Virus record (IMG/VR): IMGVR_UViG_3300010157_000005
Location: 1 to 40,512 of that record
Source of the DNA: a virus
Taxonomy: Duplodnaviria > Caudoviricetes
Strand: one strand, 5' to 3'
Length of the DNA: 40,512 bases
Shown here in pieces: positions 1-40,512 of this stretch. Position 1 is the first letter of the stretch. Every line of letters begins with the position of its first letter. A program made the translations under genes and the position numbers. The notes under the pieces were generated by a model. That model made no database searches, was not told where the DNA came from, and saw only the letters and a list, made by a program, of their open reading frames with translations.

Positions 1-123
1 TCAAGTGCCATGTTCAGCCACTCTTTGAAGTTAAGTCCGTTGATTTTGTCTGGTGTTTGCCAGAAGGCTCGTAGTCGGGAAATGTCGCTGGTGTATTTAT
101 CTCGGGCTGTTGCCATTGCACGA
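1..123. repeat. Terminal overlap identical to 40390-40512 (circular assembly; unit genome 40389 bp)
   Basis: Exact 123-bp match; the portal frame reads through the join. Confidence 0.97.
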
Positions 124-572
124 ACATGGTCACCACCCGACTCGGCAACAATCATTTCTGATGCTGATGTGCTAAATGTTATGTCCCACTCCATACCTGC
201 AATTCTGGCTTTAAGGACTTCTACACAACGGCGGATAATGTCAATTTGGTCTGCGGCTGACCGTAACATTGAGAACGGAATTAGTCGCTGGTTGGTTACA
301 TTAATGTTCCAAGCAACTGGGTATTCCCAACGGCGTGGGTCAGGTCTTCCGTCTTCATTAACTGGGTTAATTGCCGCAGGTGTTAGTGGTCGCCCAGGAC
401 CAAACGGAATTGCGGCTAACCAAGCCTGTCGTTCGAGTGGTGTCATACTGCCCATACCGTAGGTTTGTGGCAATAAGGCTGCTTGGTTTATCTCGGTTAC
501 ATTGGCTCCGACTGGGAATTGGGGTGCGGCTTTGTCTATGTTTCTGCGAAAAAGATTATCCCAGATAGCCAC
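1..572 (-). CDS. Portal protein, N-terminal part (GTG at 572; full protein ~597 aa across the join)
   Basis: GTG directly follows the TerL TAA; open frame (MAIWDNLFRR...WEYPVAWNINV...) in phase with ORF 39168..40505. Confidence 0.88.
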   Translation of the reverse strand, partial: MAIWDNLFRRNIDKAAPQFPVGANVTEINQAALLPQTYGMGSMTPLERQAWLAAIPFGPGRPLTPAAINPVNEDGRPDPRRWEYPVAWNINVTNQRLIPFSMLRSAADQIDIIRRCVEVLKARIAGMEWDITFSTSASEMIVAESGGDHVRAMATARDKYTSDISRLRAFWQTPDKINGLNFKEWLNMAL

Positions 573-2318: not shown

Positions 2319-4076
2319 TTAGTCCTTATGTTCTTCTGAAGTGTGAAAATGTGGTTGTTGTTTAAATGTGGACCAAATTCTAGATGGGGCTATTCGTGGT
2401 GCATTGTTTTTGGTGATTACTTTAAATGCGTCTTCTCCCCATTGTTTAACTAAGTTTTCGCATCTCGTACGCATTGTTTGTCCTACTCGTGCTTCCGCAC
2501 CCATTCCGCCTGTGTCGTTTGGCGTTGTGGGTAGGCTTGCGAGTGCTCTTGCAAATACTAAGGTGCAGTATCCTTTGTCAAGGTATTGCATTGTGACATC
2601 TATGTCGTCAATTATCATTGGGCGGAAGATAATTTCAGGGTCGTTTTTGAATAGCATCACGCTGGCTACCATCTTATTAAGTTTTATCGGTGTTGGTACA
2701 GTGTAAGCAAATGTGTCATACATTGGTGCTGCCGTTCCTATGTTGGAGTAAAGGTTTGTGACTTTCTCTACAATGCTTAGAACATGTGCTCCTGTGGTTT
2801 TAAGGTTTTTGGTGTCTATGCGTACTCGGAATGCTTTTACATCGTCGTCTAATTGCCAATGGTATGTGTGTCCGTTTTCTGTTGCGTGATTTTTGGCAAA
2901 GTTTCGTGCGTAATCTATCCCTTGGTCATTTTTGTCCATCATCAGAAGTTCGTGGTCTGGGTGGTATTTTTGATAGTTCTCATAATCTTGTGGTTCTACT
3001 AAAACATAGAAAGATACGCCAGACTCACGAAGTAGTTGTGGTGTTGTTGTTGAACCTGCCCTATTTTTTGATGGTATGTAAATTGGGTACATAACTTTAT
3101 GGTTTCCGTGTAAGTCTGTTTTTAATTGTTCGGCTAAATCTATTCCCGTTTGGAAGTCTGCCCCAATAACCGTTTGTGTTTTTTTTGATGATGTGGATTT
3201 TATTTTTTTCTTGGCAGGTTTAGCATTAACTGATTTAACTTTAGGAACATAATTAGCATCTACTGGGACTAACTGTTGCTTAAAGCCTGAGAAATCTACA
3301 ACATGGTGGATGCGGTTGAACCTAATGACGGTCTTTGTGCAGTCTGGGTGTAGGCGGACTAATTCTGCCGACTTTTTAATAAACCCACCGTCTGCATAAA
3401 AGTCAGTCATACCGCCCGACATTCTGCCTTTACGACTTGTGCCGATTTTCTGAATACCAACAAGTCTTGACTCGGCGGTACACCAATACCCAGTCTTTAA
3501 AATGTCTATGCTAACAATTGTGTCGTCATTTAATCCTCTACGCCACTTAATGCCGTACTCGTGTAAGTCGTTTCGGTACAAAGTTGCACAGTAAAGTCGT
3601 GTGTTTAGTCCGATTGGCTTGCCCAACATAAATGGGGACATTGCCAAACTTAATCCTGCGAGGTTTCGCCACTTTTGGATAAATTCTTCGTGCCAATGTA
3701 GTGCTTTAGCATTTCCAAGTCTGATACGGCGTGCATTGTGACGGATTAGGAAGTACCTAATGTTGTCATCCATAATCCAATGGTGACTAAAGCCTTCGGA
3801 TAGTGAGTGTGCCCAAGCGAAGTTATGTGCCGCACCTGTTGTTGGGTGTGGGTCTAATTCTGGTGTTTTCTCATACTCGTCAAAGTATTTTTGTTCCCAA
3901 GCAATTACTCGGCAGTTTGGGTTTGCTTCCGTGTATGCATCTACTTCGCTTTCCTGCACAACCAAGATTGGTTTAATGCCCAAGTCCAACAAAGCATTTG
4001 CAGTTAATTGGGTTTTAGGTCTGCCTTTTGTGGGGATGTAGACTGGGAAATCTAACGGTCCTGTTACCCCATCCAA
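2319..4076 (-). CDS. Tandem two-domain GT-A glycosyltransferase (TAGT/GREB1-like)
   Basis: Two homologous halves with Y-I-P-(T/S)-K-x-R, (H/R)NFA, W-x-(M/L)-DD, a second DD and GGM, joined by a Lys-rich linker. Confidence 0.75.
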   Translation of the reverse strand: MDGVTGPLDFPVYIPTKGRPKTQLTANALLDLGIKPILVVQESEVDAYTEANPNCRVIAWEQKYFDEYEKTPELDPHPTTGAAHNFAWAHSLSEGFSHHWIMDDNIRYFLIRHNARRIRLGNAKALHWHEEFIQKWRNLAGLSLAMSPFMLGKPIGLNTRLYCATLYRNDLHEYGIKWRRGLNDDTIVSIDILKTGYWCTAESRLVGIQKIGTSRKGRMSGGMTDFYADGGFIKKSAELVRLHPDCTKTVIRFNRIHHVVDFSGFKQQLVPVDANYVPKVKSVNAKPAKKKIKSTSSKKTQTVIGADFQTGIDLAEQLKTDLHGNHKVMYPIYIPSKNRAGSTTTPQLLRESGVSFYVLVEPQDYENYQKYHPDHELLMMDKNDQGIDYARNFAKNHATENGHTYHWQLDDDVKAFRVRIDTKNLKTTGAHVLSIVEKVTNLYSNIGTAAPMYDTFAYTVPTPIKLNKMVASVMLFKNDPEIIFRPMIIDDIDVTMQYLDKGYCTLVFARALASLPTTPNDTGGMGAEARVGQTMRTRCENLVKQWGEDAFKVITKNNAPRIAPSRIWSTFKQQPHFHTSEEHKD

Positions 4077-4753
4077 GTTGGCACTTCCTCACGCTGATAG
4101 GTCTTTGGGTAACGAATACGCTTCTGCTTTTCAACATTTGGGTAGTCAATTGCCTTGTAGAAATCGGCTCGGGCTTCTTCCGTCTGGAAGTACACACGCA
4201 CCATTGTTGTAAAGGTAAAGCCAACCATGTCGGTATCCGCACCTGTGTCGTCTAGAAACTCGTCAATTGCGGTGGACACATCAACTTGGAACACATCTTG
4301 GGCTTCTAATGCTCGTTCCAAGATTTTTACATCGGATTCAACATAACCAACAACATCAAGTACGTTTTTCTCGGCAAGTTCCTGCAAAATTGTGAGTAGG
4401 TTCTGCTCATCCCACCCACCTCGTTCGGTTGTGCGGTTTAAGGCAACAAGTGCGGCATTTGCTTCGGTGTCGTTTTTTGATGCCCAGCCTTTAATTACAG
4501 GTACGAGCCACTCGCCGTCTTTAGACACTTGGATGCCGTCTGGGACACTTGCACCTTCGTTGAATAGGTTTCCTAGGACTTTTGCTCTTCCGTGCCCACT
4601 AACCATGTAGCCTGTCCGAGTGTCCAACACGATTGGTTCAATGTACCCAAACTTGGATAGTGATTTGCTCATTAGTGCTTCATCGTGGTTCTTTGGATTA
4701 AGTGGGTTTGCACTTAATTTACTTAAAGGTACATACTCAATTTCGTGGCTCAT
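4064..4753 (-). CDS. ParB/Sulfiredoxin-like N-terminal domain protein
   Basis: NPLNPKNH...SLSKFGYIEPIV...SGHGR...ALNRT. Confidence 0.85.
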   Translation of the reverse strand: MSHEIEYVPLSKLSANPLNPKNHDEALMSKSLSKFGYIEPIVLDTRTGYMVSGHGRAKVLGNLFNEGASVPDGIQVSKDGEWLVPVIKGWASKNDTEANAALVALNRTTERGGWDEQNLLTILQELAEKNVLDVVGYVESDVKILERALEAQDVFQVDVSTAIDEFLDDTGADTDMVGFTFTTMVRVYFQTEEARADFYKAIDYPNVEKQKRIRYPKTYQREEVPTWMG

Positions 4754-5889
4754 TTATTCTCCGTTTTTTCTAGGTGCGGTTGTATGTCGTTACTCCACAT
4801 TGTAAGTGCTGATGCAATTGCCATGTGCATGTCTAGGTATTTGTATGTTCCGAGTCTTCCACCAAGCCACACATTGTCTAGGTTGTTTGCGGCTTCTCGG
4901 TAACGCTTTAGCATCTCTTTGTCTGCTTCTGTGTTTATCGGGTACGCACCAATTTCGCCTTTTTCAGCATCTCGGGAGTATTCTTTGTGGATTACTGTGC
5001 CGTTATAGTTGTCTGCCAAGTCTGGGCGATAGTGCCTGTATTCGTGAATACGAGTGTACGGAACATCTGCATCTCCGTAGTTCATTACTGGGCAACCTTG
5101 GTAATCTTCCACCGTTGGGTGTTCTTCCACTAAATCAACGGTACGCCAACCAAGTTCACCAAACTCGTAATTAAAGAATAAGTCAATTGGTCCTGTAAAC
5201 AGTAGTGGTGTTTTCTTATCCCAAACTGCCAAAACATCTTCTTCTAATTTAATTTCAATGTTTGGGTGGTCTGCCATCTTTTCTAACCAAGCCTGATAGC
5301 CGTCTTTTGGTAGCCCTTGGTATTTGTCTGTAAAGTATCCGTCATCCCAAGTAAACCGCACAGGCAAGCGTTTAATTGTTTCGGCTGGCAATTCTTGTGG
5401 GTCTTTGCCCCATTGTTTTTGTGTGTAGCCTTTAACAAGTAACTCGTAGGCGTATGGACCAATACTGCTTACTGCGACATTTGCTAAGTTTTTGACTGTT
5501 GTGTTGCCGTATTCAGACATAAACAAATCTACAAATTGTCGCATCTTGCTTGGTGTAAAGCGTTCACCATACAAAGCACTATAAGTTGCTAAACCAAACG
5601 GCAACGGAATTACTCTGCCGTCTTTAACTGTGGTTCTTACTCGGTGCTGGTAAGGCACAAACTCTGTAAACCGATTTACATAATCCCAAACAACTTCATT
5701 ATTGGTGTGGAAAATGTGAGAACCGTATGTGTGTACTTCAACACCAGTTTTTTCGTCTATGTGTGACGATACATTTCCGCCAATGTGGTTTCTTTTTTCT
5801 ACAATTAAAACTTGGTAGCCAGCGTTGGCTGCTCGTTCAGCAATTGTGAGACCAAATAAACCTGCACCGCCAATAATTAAGTCGGGCAT
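4750..5889 (-). CDS. glf: UDP-galactopyranose mutase
   Basis: GAGLFG FAD motif, HIGGN, HTYGSHIFHT, KGYTQKQWG, RLPVR, YQGLP, YTRIHEY, GRLGTYKYLDMH. Confidence 0.97.
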   Translation of the reverse strand: MPDLIIGGAGLFGLTIAERAANAGYQVLIVEKRNHIGGNVSSHIDEKTGVEVHTYGSHIFHTNNEVVWDYVNRFTEFVPYQHRVRTTVKDGRVIPLPFGLATYSALYGERFTPSKMRQFVDLFMSEYGNTTVKNLANVAVSSIGPYAYELLVKGYTQKQWGKDPQELPAETIKRLPVRFTWDDGYFTDKYQGLPKDGYQAWLEKMADHPNIEIKLEEDVLAVWDKKTPLLFTGPIDLFFNYEFGELGWRTVDLVEEHPTVEDYQGCPVMNYGDADVPYTRIHEYRHYRPDLADNYNGTVIHKEYSRDAEKGEIGAYPINTEADKEMLKRYREAANNLDNVWLGGRLGTYKYLDMHMAIASALTMWSNDIQPHLEKTENK

Positions 5890-5892
5890 AGG

Positions 5893-6132
5893 TCATCTGT
5901 GGGCGTTTAAGTAGGCAACTATGATTTGTGAGTTAATCTTGCCCCTAATGCCAATTGTTAATTCGTTTGCTTTTGCCCAAGCACGGATTTCTTTTGCATT
6001 TAATCCTTGAGCCTTTGCACTACGCAAATCACGATAGATGCGATTAGTTTTAGCATAGCCTTCTTCCAATTCCTCGGGTTCATAAGGCGTACCGCTTACC
6101 TGTTGTACAAATTGTTCTTCCACAATTACCAA
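5893..6132 (-). CDS. Lsr2-type DNA-binding domain protein
   Basis: EIRAWAKANELTIGIRGKINSQIIVAY matches the Lsr2 C-terminal domain. Confidence 0.8.
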   Translation of the reverse strand: MVIVEEQFVQQVSGTPYEPEELEEGYAKTNRIYRDLRSAKAQGLNAKEIRAWAKANELTIGIRGKINSQIIVAYLNAHR

Positions 6133-9669: not shown

Positions 9670-9875
9670 TTGTCTAAACCTCTTGTTGATTTCATAAACA
9701 TAAATGTTTGTGGGTAATCCAATGCCATTGAATTGTAGATTGGATTGTCCTCTTCGCTCAGGACTTTATGGCAATCAAATGGACAGTTATGTACTTCACT
9801 TACGCTTGACTGCCCAAGTTTGTAACTAATTAAAATGATTAGCGGAACACTAATCAGCAAGCAAATACTAAGCAT
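9666..9875 (-). CDS. Small membrane protein (start ATG 9875)
   Basis: GAGGAG RBS; N-terminal hydrophobic helix. Confidence 0.6.
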   Translation of the reverse strand: MLSICLLISVPLIILISYKLGQSSVSEVHNCPFDCHKVLSEEDNPIYNSMALDYPQTFMFMKSTRGLDK

Positions 9876-10296
9876 TTTGTAACTCCTCTGTTGCCCAGTA
9901 GTAGGGAATGTCGTTTGGCACAGCACCGAAGATTGGTGTGTAAATCTCGGGTGCTTTGCGAATTAAATTAGATTGGTGGCTAATGTGTATGCGTTCGTCA
10001 CCTAACCAAAGCGGATACTCTATCCGTGTACTGGGTAAGCGGTTAATAAAGCGTTCGGCAAGTGTGTCTTTGTAACCACGCTTAACCCACTCGTTGCACA
10101 TAATCAAGCCGTAAAACGCAAGTGCATCGGAATACCCACGCCACATTTTGGTTGCTGGGTGATTAACCCAACCTTTGGTCATACCGTCTAAGGCACGCAG
10201 AATTTGGTAGGTTTCTACACGCTGTTTGCCTAGTCGTTTGTAATCTAAAACTTCGGCACTTTTGCGGAAGTGAGAGTACGGTAGAAATGTTTGCAT
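9868..10296 (-). CDS. Pyrimidine-dimer DNA glycosylase (DenV / MSMEG_6728 family)
   Basis: MQTFLPY...LDYKRLGKQRVE...NHPATKMW...SHQSNL. Confidence 0.88.
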   Translation of the reverse strand: MQTFLPYSHFRKSAEVLDYKRLGKQRVETYQILRALDGMTKGWVNHPATKMWRGYSDALAFYGLIMCNEWVKRGYKDTLAERFINRLPSTRIEYPLWLGDERIHISHQSNLIRKAPEIYTPIFGAVPNDIPYYWATEELQNA

Positions 10297-13503: not shown

Positions 13504-13764
13504 CTAATCTTTGCTAAAAAACTCTTTTCTTTCTTGGGCAGTTAATCCGCCCCACATACCAAACTTTTCGTTATTTTTAAGTGCCCACTTTAGGCAGTCT
13601 TTTTGTTCAACACAAGCAAAGCAAAGTTCTCTAGCCTTGCGGATGTGTCGTGGATTTGGACTAACCGAGTCAGCAGAGAAGAACCACTCGGGGTCCACAT
13701 CTTTGTCAGCACAAAGTGGGTTGCTGAACTGTGGTGCACCTCTAAGCCAGAACGGAGTAGTCAT
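13504..13764 (-). CDS. whiB: WhiB-family transcription factor (start ATG 13764)
   Basis: C...DPEWFF...CFAC-x5-C...GMWGG, i.e. four Cys plus the GxWGG turn. Confidence 0.95.
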   Translation of the reverse strand: MTTPFWLRGAPQFSNPLCADKDVDPEWFFSADSVSPNPRHIRKARELCFACVEQKDCLKWALKNNEKFGMWGGLTAQERKEFFSKD

Positions 13765-13796
13765 ACACCACAGTTTGCCACAAATAACTTGATTGT

Positions 13797-14084
13797 TTAG
13801 TTTTGGCTCGCCCAAAGTGGCGGTGACCAAGTATCGCCACGGCGTTCCCTAAATGCAAGCCTAGCCTTATCGCCACCAACAGTAATTAAATACTGCCCAT
13901 CTGGGATAAAGCCGTCTCCATCTGCTTCTACGACATAGGTTGAGGGTTCCAACACGCTGTCGGTGAGTATGTTTTGCAAACGCTTGATTACATAATCCAA
14001 CTCAACTTGGACAGTCTTTGGGAGTGTGGAATTGTGATTACACTCATCCACAAACTCCTGTAACATTTTCTTCATTTCAGCCAT
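13797..14084 (-). CDS. Hypothetical protein
   Basis: TAATG-coupled; LAFR...TWSPP. Confidence 0.7.
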   Translation of the reverse strand: MAEMKKMLQEFVDECNHNSTLPKTVQVELDYVIKRLQNILTDSVLEPSTYVVEADGDGFIPDGQYLITVGGDKARLAFRERRGDTWSPPLWASQN

Positions 14085-26149: not shown

Positions 26150-26371
26150 TTACTGATAGGCTTCATTTTCTACTTCAGCCCATAAACCACTAAGCGTGAG
26201 CATCCAATCCAGCCATACAGCAGGTTGCTCATCTATCTGTTGTTTAGTCCAACCAAACTGCTTGGCGAGCATAAAGTCCCTAACGACAGCAGGTAACGGA
26301 AATCTATCATCCGTTTGACCGCCCTTTAAGACCCACCTTATTCGCTGGATTGTTCGGTAATTGCTTTTGGG
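26150..26371 (-). CDS. Tail assembly chaperone -1 frameshift extension (gpGT-like)
   Basis: Slippery C-CCA-AAA at 26365-71; -1 frame open 73 codons (...LAKQFGWTKQQIDEQPAVWLDW...). Confidence 0.8.
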   Translation of the reverse strand, partial: PKSNYRTIQRIRWVLKGGQTDDRFPLPAVVRDFMLAKQFGWTKQQIDEQPAVWLDWMLTLSGLWAEVENEAYQ

Positions 26372-37629: not shown

Positions 37630-37740
37630 TTAAGGCTTTTGTCTATTTTCTTTTGCTGGTTTCTTGTCTTTTGGGATTATGGTTAAGCCAGCCATTGAGG
37701 TGTAAACAAATTTGTCTTCTTGTTTTTCTTTTTTAGGCAT
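37630..37740 (-). CDS. 36-aa basic peptide (absent from ORF track)
   Basis: AAGGAG RBS plus ATG; MPKKEKQEDKFVYTSMAGLTIIPKDKKPAKENRQKP. Confidence 0.55.
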   Translation of the reverse strand: MPKKEKQEDKFVYTSMAGLTIIPKDKKPAKENRQKP

Positions 37741-37749
37741 TTGTGCTCC

Positions 37750-39171
37750 TTAGTTAATTAACCGTAGTTTAATAGTGTTTGTATCTTTATTTATTTCAAT
37801 AAACTCAAACCTACTACCTTTGTCCAGTAGTAACTCGTGTTCACTAGACAAATCGGTGCCTGGGTTGAGCGAGTTAACGACAATACCCTTAGAGCCTGCT
37901 GGTATCTCAATTTGGAAACGCCCATACAGCCCCATGTCGTAGAAATGTTGCATCTGTAAATCTTCGTTATTGCTAAGCATTGTTGTAGAACTAAATCCAC
38001 TGTCTTGAAGTGTATCTCCAACTGAAGCGTCTTCCATAATTTGTTTGATGACGGAAGTCTTAATAAAGCGTTCAGCCATAATTGGCTTTGCTATTGCTGG
38101 TGCTTTAGCAATAATTTCACTTAATTGTGCCGCTTGATTTTCGTATGTGAAATCGAACGGGAAATCACCTCGCAAATAGTCGTTTAGACCTTGATAACCA
38201 GCACCTTGGTACTCCTCAACCGCTTGTCTATCAGACAAATCGAAAAGGTTGTTGGGTGTAGAGCGAGTGTAGTCGGCTGTAAATTGTTGAACCTGCTCTT
38301 TGTCCATACTCTCAAAGTTGGTTTCCGCAAATGGGTCACTAACATTACCGTCGTGGATAATGTTGTCCTCCAAGTCAGCACCAACATTTTGCACATCTTC
38401 AGTTGGTTGTTCTTCCGCAGGTTGGTCATCCGCAGTCTGTGTTCCGTCATCCACAACAGGAGCCAACGAACAACGGCAATTTGGGTGGGTGTCATCAACA
38501 GGTACAGGTGCATCGTCAATAGGAAATACCTCATCCTCATACTGCATACAGTCGTCACAGGGGTCAGCAACAAGCCACTTAACATACTCAATGTTGTTGT
38601 CTTTGTACTTGTCTAGTGATGCTTGGACCATTGCACGGTTTGACTCGGTACGACTAATGGTTAATGCTCGGGCTGGGTTATCCACAACCTTGTCAATAAG
38701 TTTTGCGGTTTCACCTGCTGGTAAGCCCTGTTGTAGCCCATTGTGTAGTGCATTACCAATTTGACTTATTTCGGTTTCTTCCAAGCCTTTAATTGTGACC
38801 TTGGCATTGTTTAATAGTTTTTGTAGTCCATCATTTGGTTCTAAAAGAGCCGCCGCACTTTGGATACCAGGCTTCCACTTGCTCCAGTCCAAACCTAGTG
38901 ATGAACCGAGTTGTTGGTTGGCTTGATTTTCCCCAAACGCATAACCCGAGCCATAAACCTCTGTAAGTATTTCGCGGAGTTGTTGGTCATTAAAGTCAAT
39001 GTTTAGTCGCACCCAGTCTTTTGCTGATTGTGGTGATGTGGACTTAATTAAGTTGTGTTCGTTCCAGCGTTTGGCTAGTCGTTCAACATTAATGCTGTTC
39101 TTGATTGCACTGTTAATCAGTAGTGCGTTACGAGCAAACAGTTGGTCCCTAGCAGACTCAAGTGCATTTAC
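37750..39171 (-). CDS. MuF minor head domain fused to a VIP2-like ADP-ribosyltransferase; frame open to the portal slippery site (first start codon only at 39012)
   Basis: RALTISRTE, CDDC...HPNCRC (MuF); YQGAGYQGLNDYLR, R...FSSTT...EHE (R-S-E ART). Confidence 0.9.
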   Translation of the reverse strand, partial: VNALESARDQLFARNALLINSAIKNSINVERLAKRWNEHNLIKSTSPQSAKDWVRLNIDFNDQQLREILTEVYGSGYAFGENQANQQLGSSLGLDWSKWKPGIQSAAALLEPNDGLQKLLNNAKVTIKGLEETEISQIGNALHNGLQQGLPAGETAKLIDKVVDNPARALTISRTESNRAMVQASLDKYKDNNIEYVKWLVADPCDDCMQYEDEVFPIDDAPVPVDDTHPNCRCSLAPVVDDGTQTADDQPAEEQPTEDVQNVGADLEDNIIHDGNVSDPFAETNFESMDKEQVQQFTADYTRSTPNNLFDLSDRQAVEEYQGAGYQGLNDYLRGDFPFDFTYENQAAQLSEIIAKAPAIAKPIMAERFIKTSVIKQIMEDASVGDTLQDSGFSSTTMLSNNEDLQMQHFYDMGLYGRFQIEIPAGSKGIVVNSLNPGTDLSSEHELLLDKGSRFEFIEINKDTNTIKLRLIN

Positions 39172-40512
39172 TTTTTTTTTAGTAAATCTTCCGCAATACT
39201 TTTAGTAAGTTGGTAGTCAGTTTTGGCGGCTTGATTTAGTGCTGATGCGTAGAAACCTTTAATACTTTTGAACTCAAAGTCACGGTCTGTGTTACCTTTT
39301 TTAGCCCACTTTAGGAACGCTTTAACTTCGTTAATTTGTTCTACTTCGTTTTGCGGTACTTCAGCATCTTCCTCACCACTGATTTGTGGTCCTGTTGATG
39401 TTGGTTCTTCCGTTGGTTTATCCACAGGCACTAAGCCTTCTGAGGTAAAGGTGTAGATTGCGGTACCTGCAATAAGCATTGGTGTATCAGCAATTGGGCT
39501 GTCAATTAGCGGTAGATTTAATTCGCTACGAGCCTCGTTAATGCTTCGCTGTCCTGACCTAACTTCCTTGTCCCGACGGTTTGCCATTGCTTCCGAGTCG
39601 GTTTCACGCCCACCATTAAATGAGAACACAAGTTCTGGTGGCATTTTTAGGAACCTGCGACTGATTTCGCTAATCATTTCAGCAAGCCAAAGTGTTAGTG
39701 GTTCAATACCAATTACATCACCAGACCGTGCTTCGCCTACTTGTTGCCCTGCACCGCCTAATGCACCACCGTCTGCGTATCCGATTTCGCTTGGTAGTAC
39801 TCCAAAGTGTCCACAAATTGCTTTAATTAGATACTCGTCTAGTGAAGCACTAAACTTTTCGGAGTGGTTACTTAAGTCAATTGGGTCTAAGCCAGCAGGT
39901 AGAACTCTTGCCCTCTTGCGTTGGTTTGTTTGTCCAGCCAAGTCGTCATTTAAAATGTTTTCGTATGCTCGTAGTAACTCTGGAGTGTTACCAAAGTTTT
40001 CATCCGTCTTGAACATCAGGTCAGGCATAACACCGTCAGTGAACTCGGAGCGTAACCATTGTTGTCTGCGTAAATAAACATCAGACACGGGTAAGGCTCG
40101 TTCCACAGGTGGGAAGCCGTATGGTGTCCAAGTGCGTTGGTTACGAACTTTGTAGATTAGTTCATCAGCCGAGTAGGCACTATCCGACTCAACATTTGCT
40201 GCAAGAAACTCACCACGCGGAAATCCGTACAAAATCTGTTGGAAAGCAGGGAACGGTGCTTGTGGTCGCATACCTCTATCATCCAACAACGGTTTAATTG
40301 TGGAACCGTCAAGGATTTCAAGACTGTGTAGGTCACCCTTTAAGTCTGGGTGTGGGTAAATTGCTAAAGCATCTATGACAAGGACTTCTTCAAGTGCCAT
40401 GTTCAGCCACTCTTTGAAGTTAAGTCCGTTGATTTTGTCTGGTGTTTGCCAGAAGGCTCGTAGTCGGGAAATGTCGCTGGTGTATTTATCTCGGGCTGTT
40501 GCCATTGCACGA
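39168..40512 (-). CDS. Portal protein, C-terminal part
   Basis: YGFPPVE, ICGHFGVLPSEIG, SINEARSELNLP; follows terL on the circle. Confidence 0.92.
   Translation of the reverse strand, partial: RAMATARDKYTSDISRLRAFWQTPDKINGLNFKEWLNMALEEVLVIDALAIYPHPDLKGDLHSLEILDGSTIKPLLDDRGMRPQAPFPAFQQILYGFPRGEFLAANVESDSAYSADELIYKVRNQRTWTPYGFPPVERALPVSDVYLRRQQWLRSEFTDGVMPDLMFKTDENFGNTPELLRAYENILNDDLAGQTNQRKRARVLPAGLDPIDLSNHSEKFSASLDEYLIKAICGHFGVLPSEIGYADGGALGGAGQQVGEARSGDVIGIEPLTLWLAEMISEISRRFLKMPPELVFSFNGGRETDSEAMANRRDKEVRSGQRSINEARSELNLPLIDSPIADTPMLIAGTAIYTFTSEGLVPVDKPTEEPTSTGPQISGEEDAEVPQNEVEQINEVKAFLKWAKKGNTDRDFEFKSIKGFYASALNQAAKTDYQLTKSIAEDLLKKK
39171..39180 (-). other. Slippery site A9G (A-AAA-AAG) directly before the portal stop
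   Basis: CTA AAA AAA AAG TAA; -1 frame continues GTA AAT GCA into MuF-ART. Confidence 0.7.
40390..40512. repeat. Terminal overlap identical to 1-123
   Basis: Exact match. Confidence 0.97.

Follow-up and report, generated by a model that had tools for sequence, protein, structure and literature searches.

A conserved slippery site at the end of a phage portal gene predicts a portal–MuF–ADP-ribosyltransferase fusion made by −1 frameshifting

How does a phage translate a MuF–ADP-ribosyltransferase (ART) gene that has no start codon of its own? The question is raised by IMG/VR record IMGVR_UViG_3300010157_000005 (Caudoviricetes), analysed here over its whole stretch of 40,512 nucleotides (the window). 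The window holds a complete phage genome, a circle of 40,389 bp, plus a 123-bp terminal repeat; encoded on its minus strand are terminase, portal, MuF, protease, capsid, tail tube and tape measure. The portal gene, read across the terminal repeat, specifies 597 amino acids (aa) in all and is uninterrupted in locus L081; MuF lies behind it in the −1 frame. The evidence indicates that the two are probably joined by ribosomal programmed −1 frameshifting at the portal end, giving both the portal and a portal–MuF–ART protein.

The portal ends CTA AAA AAA AAG TAA on the minus strand, with a run of nine adenines (A9) at 39172-39180, as had been noted in a sequence-only reading of the window. The −1 frame stays open between 39201 and 37750 and holds no ATG, GTG or TTG through 53 codons past the portal stop. 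Its first potential start, GTG at 39012, lacks a ribosome-binding site, with no Shine–Dalgarno (SD)-like purine run within 23 nt upstream, and the ATG that follows the portal stop belongs to the portal frame and ends after 16 codons. A slip at either of two overlapping heptamers would give a trans-frame product of 1,070 aa. These elements of the earlier reading held, while two others stood in part. A slippery heptamer is present, but the one shared by the nearest relatives is A-AAA-AAA, one codon upstream of the A-AAA-AAG that had been proposed. The 53 codons described as a linker are indeed start-less and coding, but they form the normal MuF N-terminus, because the MuF proteins of relatives align with the window frame from VNALE onward, beginning at the start Met of those that are initiated normally. 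The proposal that the GGAAG upstream acts as an SD stimulator found no support: its duplex of −3.5 kcal/mol compares with a control mean of −2.5 ± 1.8, and an upstream SD-like duplex of about −9.5 kcal/mol occurs in 7 of 17 loci of the nearest clade and is weak in the others.

Relatives gathered with the C-terminal helical domain of the portal as query comprised 223 loci, 200 of which contain the portal end and its stop; these reduce to 126 distinct junctions, 125 with a MuF match. The 16 junctions (17 loci) with the best scores to a profile made from four of their number were taken as the nearest clade, and the other 109 as controls. Across the first 80 loci (portals ∼52% identical, leaving aside L001, a second assembly), MuF mostly starts within an overlap (ATGA, GTGA or TAATG) with the end of the portal gene. 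By contrast, all 16 clade junctions carry an X-XXA-AAA heptamer in the portal frame (A-AAA-AAA in 12, G-GGA-AAA in 2 and C-CCA-AAA in 2), 10 nt before the stop in 14 junctions and further upstream in 2. MuF lies in the −1 frame in every one of them, with no ATG, GTG or TTG from −45 to +30 in 15. A slippery site, a stop and a start-less −1 MuF frame in relatives had been set beforehand as the test of the proposal, and these are what the clade displays. A nearby MuF start is present in 106 of the 109 control junctions and any heptamer in 1 (clade versus controls, Fisher p = 1.4 × 10−15, with kinship ignored).

The heptamer variants alter the portal peptide, which reads LKK, LGK or LPK. Three like bases are kept while the base itself changes, a constraint that tandem tRNA slippage imposes and polymerase slippage does not. 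Portal clusters ending in L[KGP]K account for 43 of the best 120, including the window's own (42 of the 119 others). In a FastTree phylogeny that included 13 of the 16 clade loci, those of sufficient length, and omitted every second normal-start row, the shift-type portals group on a single branch (51 rows at 99), and a further-thinned tree gives such a branch again (27 rows at 99). A DNA pattern scan returned 15 loci, among which only the identical contig is portal-related; a second pattern scan gave 0 matches, a metagenome scan no additional clade member, and a genome scan one normal-start locus, in a metagenome-assembled genome of Actinomycetota. Three portals, P0043, P0048 and P0051, branch beside the shift clade and end in ..VV(H/V/A)PF; their junctions may hide a different slippery site.

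A G+C-rich hairpin of 5–7 bp, starting 5–7 nt past the heptamer, accompanies the slippery site in 16 of 17 clade loci (15 of 16 junctions), with energies of −7.5 to −12.1 kcal/mol, and 8 of 109 control junctions reach −7 kcal/mol or lower. Pairing is kept in 83% of alignment cells, with compensatory, two-sided changes in six of seven pairs; 0 of 500 shuffles reached this pairing and slid controls gave 24–37%, figures that are inflated and do not serve as probabilities, because the structure was derived from those same related sequences. The run of A has length 9 in the window alone, against 4 or 7 in each of the other 16 loci. Comparison across the clade indicates that the tight hairpin has decayed in the window lineage, where the run grew to A9. 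RNA-polymerase slippage on A9 may add to the same 1,070-aa product there, since the clade hairpin is absent.

The window also contains an internal control with the same type of heptamer. The portal arrangement exceeds chance expectation, for just two of the 25 X-XXA-AAA sites on the coding strand fall close to the end of a long open reading frame (ORF) with an open −1 frame: the portal-end site and a C-CCA-AAA-G site in the ORF that separates tail tube from tape measure. The latter occupies the position of the lambda G/GT site, and the ORF with its 71-codon −1 extension is likely a G/GT-type tail-chaperone frameshift.

Sister loci provide a second view of the junction. Among 150 longer homologues retrieved by search are in-frame portal–MuF–ART proteins of 1,093–1,188 aa, so this architecture does occur in nature; the closest of the 150 include such chains of about 1,100–1,150 aa with 45–49% portal identity. 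A junction peptide K-x-G..x-P-K-[AV] is found in 23 of the top 28. Seven pattern-matched sister-clade loci (five distinct) all carry C-CCA-AAA-G and a hairpin (−8.4 to −12.6 kcal/mol) with the wiring reversed: the fusion is read in the zero frame, and the −1 frame meets a stop after 34–41 residues. The same wiring is seen in the cultured Arthrobacter phages Sonali and Mufasa8, whose gp3 proteins (61% identical to each other, with portals that are distant homologues at 27% identity) have the order portal–NUDIX–MuF; Sonali gp3 is annotated 'portal and MuF-like fusion protein'. C-CCA-AAA-G stands directly before MuF in both, followed by a −11 kcal/mol hairpin in which the stem is the same and the loop has changed, and by a −1 stop nine residues on, at the same place, TAG in one phage and TGA in the other. 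The codons concerned are rare in these genes (AAA for 3 of 35 and 4 of 36 Lys; CCA for 5 of 74 and 5 of 82 Pro). A slip is predicted to yield an unannotated short portal of 748 or 749 aa, against a full-length protein of 995 or 1,000 aa, and because the same slippery site and hairpin are combined with a −1 stop, the two gp3 proteins are probably not constitutive fusions.

The arrangement has limits within the wider family. No X-XXA-AAA site was found in the three Microbacterium cluster EB genes or in Brevundimonas phage Strzyga, and THSA-485A has A-AAA-AAA-G without a hairpin, one of 10 heptamers listed in an AT-rich gene. Casey, Neferthena and Schubert were rejected as portal–MuF fusions, their GenBank records giving portal and MuF as separate coding sequences. 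Separate portal and MuF coding sequences are recorded in GenBank for L244, L245 and L246 (Microbacterium EA3, EA5 and EA8 phages), contrary to a passage of PMC7302621. One portal family thus has three wirings: separate coupled genes, a fusion by slip and a short portal by slip. What selection keeps would seem to be two portal forms and not a minority fusion. The earlier claim of a minority fusion accordingly needs a change, because reversed-wiring relatives would make the fusion by default; in the wiring of the window, the fusion would be the minority product only if the slip rate is below half.

Could the same fusion arise in the window mainly by RNA-polymerase slippage on A9, with an added A putting MuF in frame? 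The window alone combines a nine-A run with the loss of the tight hairpin, and runs of nine A or T slip efficiently in bacteria, a property on which dnaX of T. thermophilus relies (a passage of PMC5009743). Relatives with G-GGA-AAA or C-CCA-AAA, however, hold only A4 and so need ribosomal shifting, and in the window itself both heptamers remain valid and a weaker hairpin, well spaced from A-AAA-AAG, is possible; we judge slippage unlikely as the main route. It is far less probable that MuF is a separate product, re-initiated at a non-standard codon over the portal stop (GTA-A for GTG-A or ATG-A) or at GTG 39012. Most outside relatives do start MuF at this place by overlap with the stop, and L153 has GTGA, but the codon over the stop is variable within the clade (GTA, ATA, CTA, TTA, GTG), and for this reason GTA as a special start was dropped. 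MuF homology in L150 already begins 28 nt upstream of the portal stop, the first canonical starts in the clade are scattered between +47 and +236 nt, and initiation at 39012 would lose a conserved N-terminal stretch. Re-initiation also leaves the heptamer, the hairpin and the reversed wiring unexplained.

We give scarcely any credence to a homopolymer miscall, or to DNA-level phase variation, in which a true or alternating A10 state would make a plain fusion. An A9 run is error-prone, contigs of three sequencing runs leave 39074-39293 uncovered, and plain-looking fusions are present in the family. Yet A9 is also read in the second assembly, L001, which differs by 4 substitutions over ∼5.3 kb, and long homopolymers are absent from the G-GGA-AAA and C-CCA-AAA variants, which makes a miscall unlikely; the same −1 offset recurs in 15 other junctions with A7 or A4 runs, and the top portal clusters of the clade include 0 in-frame fusions. 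Equally hard to credit is a decaying MuF–ART gene without a start beside an incidental A-run. Such decay would accord with the atypical residues around the ART Arg and with a passage of PMC6316719, by which SPP1 gp7 is dispensable for assembly, but the −1 MuF ORF is uninterrupted in 17 of 17 clade loci (248–594 aa) and its Cys motifs are conserved although the portals are only ∼60–67% identical.

If programmed −1 frameshifting operates, ribosomes ending the portal gene would slip back one base on X-XXA-AAA (here A-AAA-AAA/A-AAA-AAG) before the stop, and one gene would give both the 597-aa portal and the 1,070-aa fusion, with MuF produced solely within the latter. The portal C-terminus points into the head interior. 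By analogy with SPP1 gp6/gp7, mixed portal rings would tether a set number of MuF–effector chains in the head. The chains would then need release by cleavage, for which the head maturation protease, whose gene is present, is a possible agent; cleavage at the acidic linker with its IHDG motif is plausible. The released effector would be ejected and would modify a host protein on arginine. The sequences themselves display the anatomy, its conservation, the compensatory changes and the predicted ART fold, from which the shift, its rate and the packaging, release and target of the effector are inferred. A broader account strikes us as evenly balanced: the junction would be an old recoding switch for a mixed ring, wired both ways and lost to translational coupling in a third branch, in which the slip rate would meter the MuF–toxin chains that each virion carries, cuts free and ejects, and the Sonali and Mufasa8 'fusions' would hide a short portal.

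Several observations, in addition to the inflated covariation figures, weigh against frameshifting or against its proposed outcome. The tight hairpin is missing from the window alone among clade members (−1.4 kcal/mol; 70-nt fold z −0.62), and L153 has a GTG start besides the heptamer signal. A further scan of sister loci added L242, in which C-CCA-AAA and an early −1 stop lack an accompanying hairpin, and L243, without such a site at the junction. A-AAA-AAA is a weaker shift site in E. coli than A-AAA-AAG, the latter relying on a single tRNA-Lys (a passage of PMC5009743). A covalent portal fusion is not ejectable unless cleaved. The residues beside the ART catalytic Arg differ from those in all nine aligned relatives, so ART activity is not assured.

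The identification of the cargo as an R-S-E type ART on MuF was borne out by domain matches (Table 1), motifs and predicted fold. Alignment with PDB sequences places the Arg near 38070, STT at 37995-37981 and E-x-E near 37840. The AlphaFold model of the domain has a predicted local distance difference test score (pLDDT) of 82, and Foldseek aligns it with VIP2/C3-class ARTs and with the effector–immunity pairs 8za7 and 6dre at template-modelling (TM) scores of 0.70–0.75. Cargo differs across the clade: an ART in the window and L153, a zeta-like kinase (Zeta_toxin) in L082, HExxH tails in L085, L155, L158 and L159, an unnamed tail in L150 and none in nine loci. The motif [IVA]IHDG follows the acidic linker in six of the eight cargo-bearing MuFs (window, L085, L150, L155, L158 and L159) and in 0 of 25 long proteins checked; it is a candidate cleavage or recombination site. 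All eight cargo-bearing loci have an ORF of 33–69 aa at −4 to +11 nt from the stop. The 36-aa ORF of the window is a candidate immunity or partner protein, and a small ORF of under 150 aa behind the cargo is as expected by analogy with the MuF toxin–immunity pairing described in parts of PMC5576092.

Some further features of the cargo region were observed. L084 and L085 share the junction and a near-identical MuF, with a 270-aa HExxH cargo in one only, a difference that points to recent cassette exchange. The normal-start relatives L003 (6361-7426) and L161 (3034-4904) have a tandem pair of ART domains downstream of MuF. A conserved 93-aa gene after the cargo cassette is preceded by a sigma-70-like promoter match (10/12) at window 37645-37616 (−) and closed by a terminator-like hairpin at 37341-37325 (−), promoter and terminator counts being not above those of shuffles.

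WhiB and Lsr2 DNA-binding domain genes in the window suggest that the host is likely an actinobacterium. Window ORFs scanned with Pfam gave 0 integrase or repressor matches, an absence that is not proof of a lytic life. A pyrimidine-dimer glycosylase gene lies at 9868-10296. A cassette upstream of the terminase, at 2319-5889 (−), contains a UDP-galactopyranose mutase gene, a 229-aa ORF without a Pfam match and a gene whose product has two stretches of the TET-associated glycosyltransferase family (PF20691); it possibly serves glycosylation of DNA or virion with galactofuranose.

Table 1. Coordinates of the features discussed, in window positions except where a locus is named
Feature	Position	Strand	Evidence or remark
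Portal gene, 5′ part, GTG start at 572	1..572	−	rest of gene lies across terminal repeat
Portal gene, 3′ part	39168..40512	−	PF04860 E 1.5e-13; phrog_2662; stop TAA 39168-39170
Weak SD-like GGAAG	39188..39192	−	10 nt before A-AAA-AAG, 7 nt before A-AAA-AAA
Conserved slippery heptamer A-AAA-AAA (X-XXA-AAA), 10 nt before stop	39174..39180	−	aligned in 16/16 clade junctions
Second heptamer A-AAA-AAG, lineage-specific; overlaps first to make A9	39171..39177	−	absent in other 15 junctions
Possible bulged hairpin 5 nt past A-AAA-AAG, about −7 kcal/mol	39137..39165	−	70-nt fold z −0.62
Start-less −1 frame, MuF N-terminus to ART	37750..39171	−	Pfam and translation
MuF core	38763-38464	−	PF04233 E 1.7e-12, above Pfam cut-off
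IHDG motif of acidic linker	38361-38347	−	sequence
ART domain, R-S-E type mono-ADP-ribosyltransferase (predicted)	37786..38241	−	PF03496 E 1.9e-12, above Pfam cut-off
36-aa ORF directly after ART, AGGAG ribosome-binding site	37630..37740	−	no Pfam match
ORF at tail-chaperone position, between tail tube and tape measure	26697-26150	−	no Pfam match to ORF itself
C-CCA-AAA-G in tail tube/tape measure ORF	26365..26371	−	opens 71-codon −1 frame; lambda G/GT-type position
WhiB gene	13504-13830	−	Pfam domain scan
Lsr2 DNA-binding domain gene	5893-6132	−	Pfam domain scan
Slippery site, hairpin and early −1 stop in gp3	L224:4354-4390 (Sonali), L235:4347-4383 (Mufasa8)		

Comparison with passages of the published accounts places the predicted system among several known ones. 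The lambda-type tail chaperone G/GT frameshift (PMC5009743) likewise obtains short and C-terminally extended products in a fixed ratio from an X-XXY-YYZ site placed close to the 3′ end of a morphogenesis gene; unlike it, the present case concerns the portal gene, is predicted to put both products into the virion, adds MuF and an exchangeable effector as the extension, and has a conserved hairpin 3′ of the site. The recoded proteins of T3/T7, A2, A118/A500 and PSA, and gp17.1* of SPP1 (PMC5009743, PMC6316719), also give a fraction of oligomer subunits an extra domain, but these are surface Ig/FN3-like domains on major capsid or tail proteins, whereas here an internal head protein and an enzyme would be added. 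The dnaX tau/gamma pair (PMC5009743) is alike in that one gene supplies long and short subunits of one ring and in that both wirings and both slippage mechanisms occur among relatives: ribosomal in E. coli, transcriptional in T. thermophilus and reversed in some bacteria. It differs in being a host replisome gene and not a phage portal, and in its established SD stimulator, which is unsupported here.

On the side of the cargo, MuF polymorphic toxins (Jamet et al. 2017, PMC5576092; MuF-VIP2 of Microbacterium EH/EJ phages, PMC7302621; MuF-ART, PMC9503650) share the order of MuF after portal, a variable C-terminal effector and a small ORF behind, but in the system described here MuF has no start codon of its own and a covalent link to the portal is predicted. 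PMC5576092 in part links toxin-bearing MuFs to temperate phages, whereas no integrase was seen among the scanned ORFs of the window. MuF-ARTs have been proposed to be packaged and injected (passages of PMC9503650 and PMC5512222). SPP1 gp7 enters the procapsid in few copies by portal binding and helps infection (a passage of PMC6316719), with one to two copies held through non-covalent portal binding (a passage of PMC5576092). Single-ORF portal–MuF fusions (Sonali gp3, Mufasa8 gp3 and Microbacterium cluster EB) have the same domain order as the predicted fusion.

Recoded extensions of tail chaperone, capsid and tail proteins, MuF toxins and single-ORF portal–MuF fusions (PMC7302621, in part) are thus already known. 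A portal frameshift was not found in full-text literature searches, most subscription papers lying outside their reach, nor in word searches of PMC5009743 (the first 300,000 of 449,034 characters) and of the accessible text of PMC5576092, PMC5512222 and PMC10885494. The word 'portal' has 0 mentions in that part of PMC5009743, and 'frameshift' 0 in the accessible text of PMC5576092. The PRFect paper names MuF/VIP2 only as a false-positive category and 'portal' never, and one supplementary file gave no match.

If the frameshift is confirmed, programmed frameshifting would reach the portal, the unique vertex of the capsid, and would explain how phages fix MuF and toxin copy number within the head. 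Gene callers would then be truncating MuF in one clade and, in another, overlooking a short form of the portal. Because two cultured Arthrobacter phages have the reversed wiring, the idea can be tested directly.

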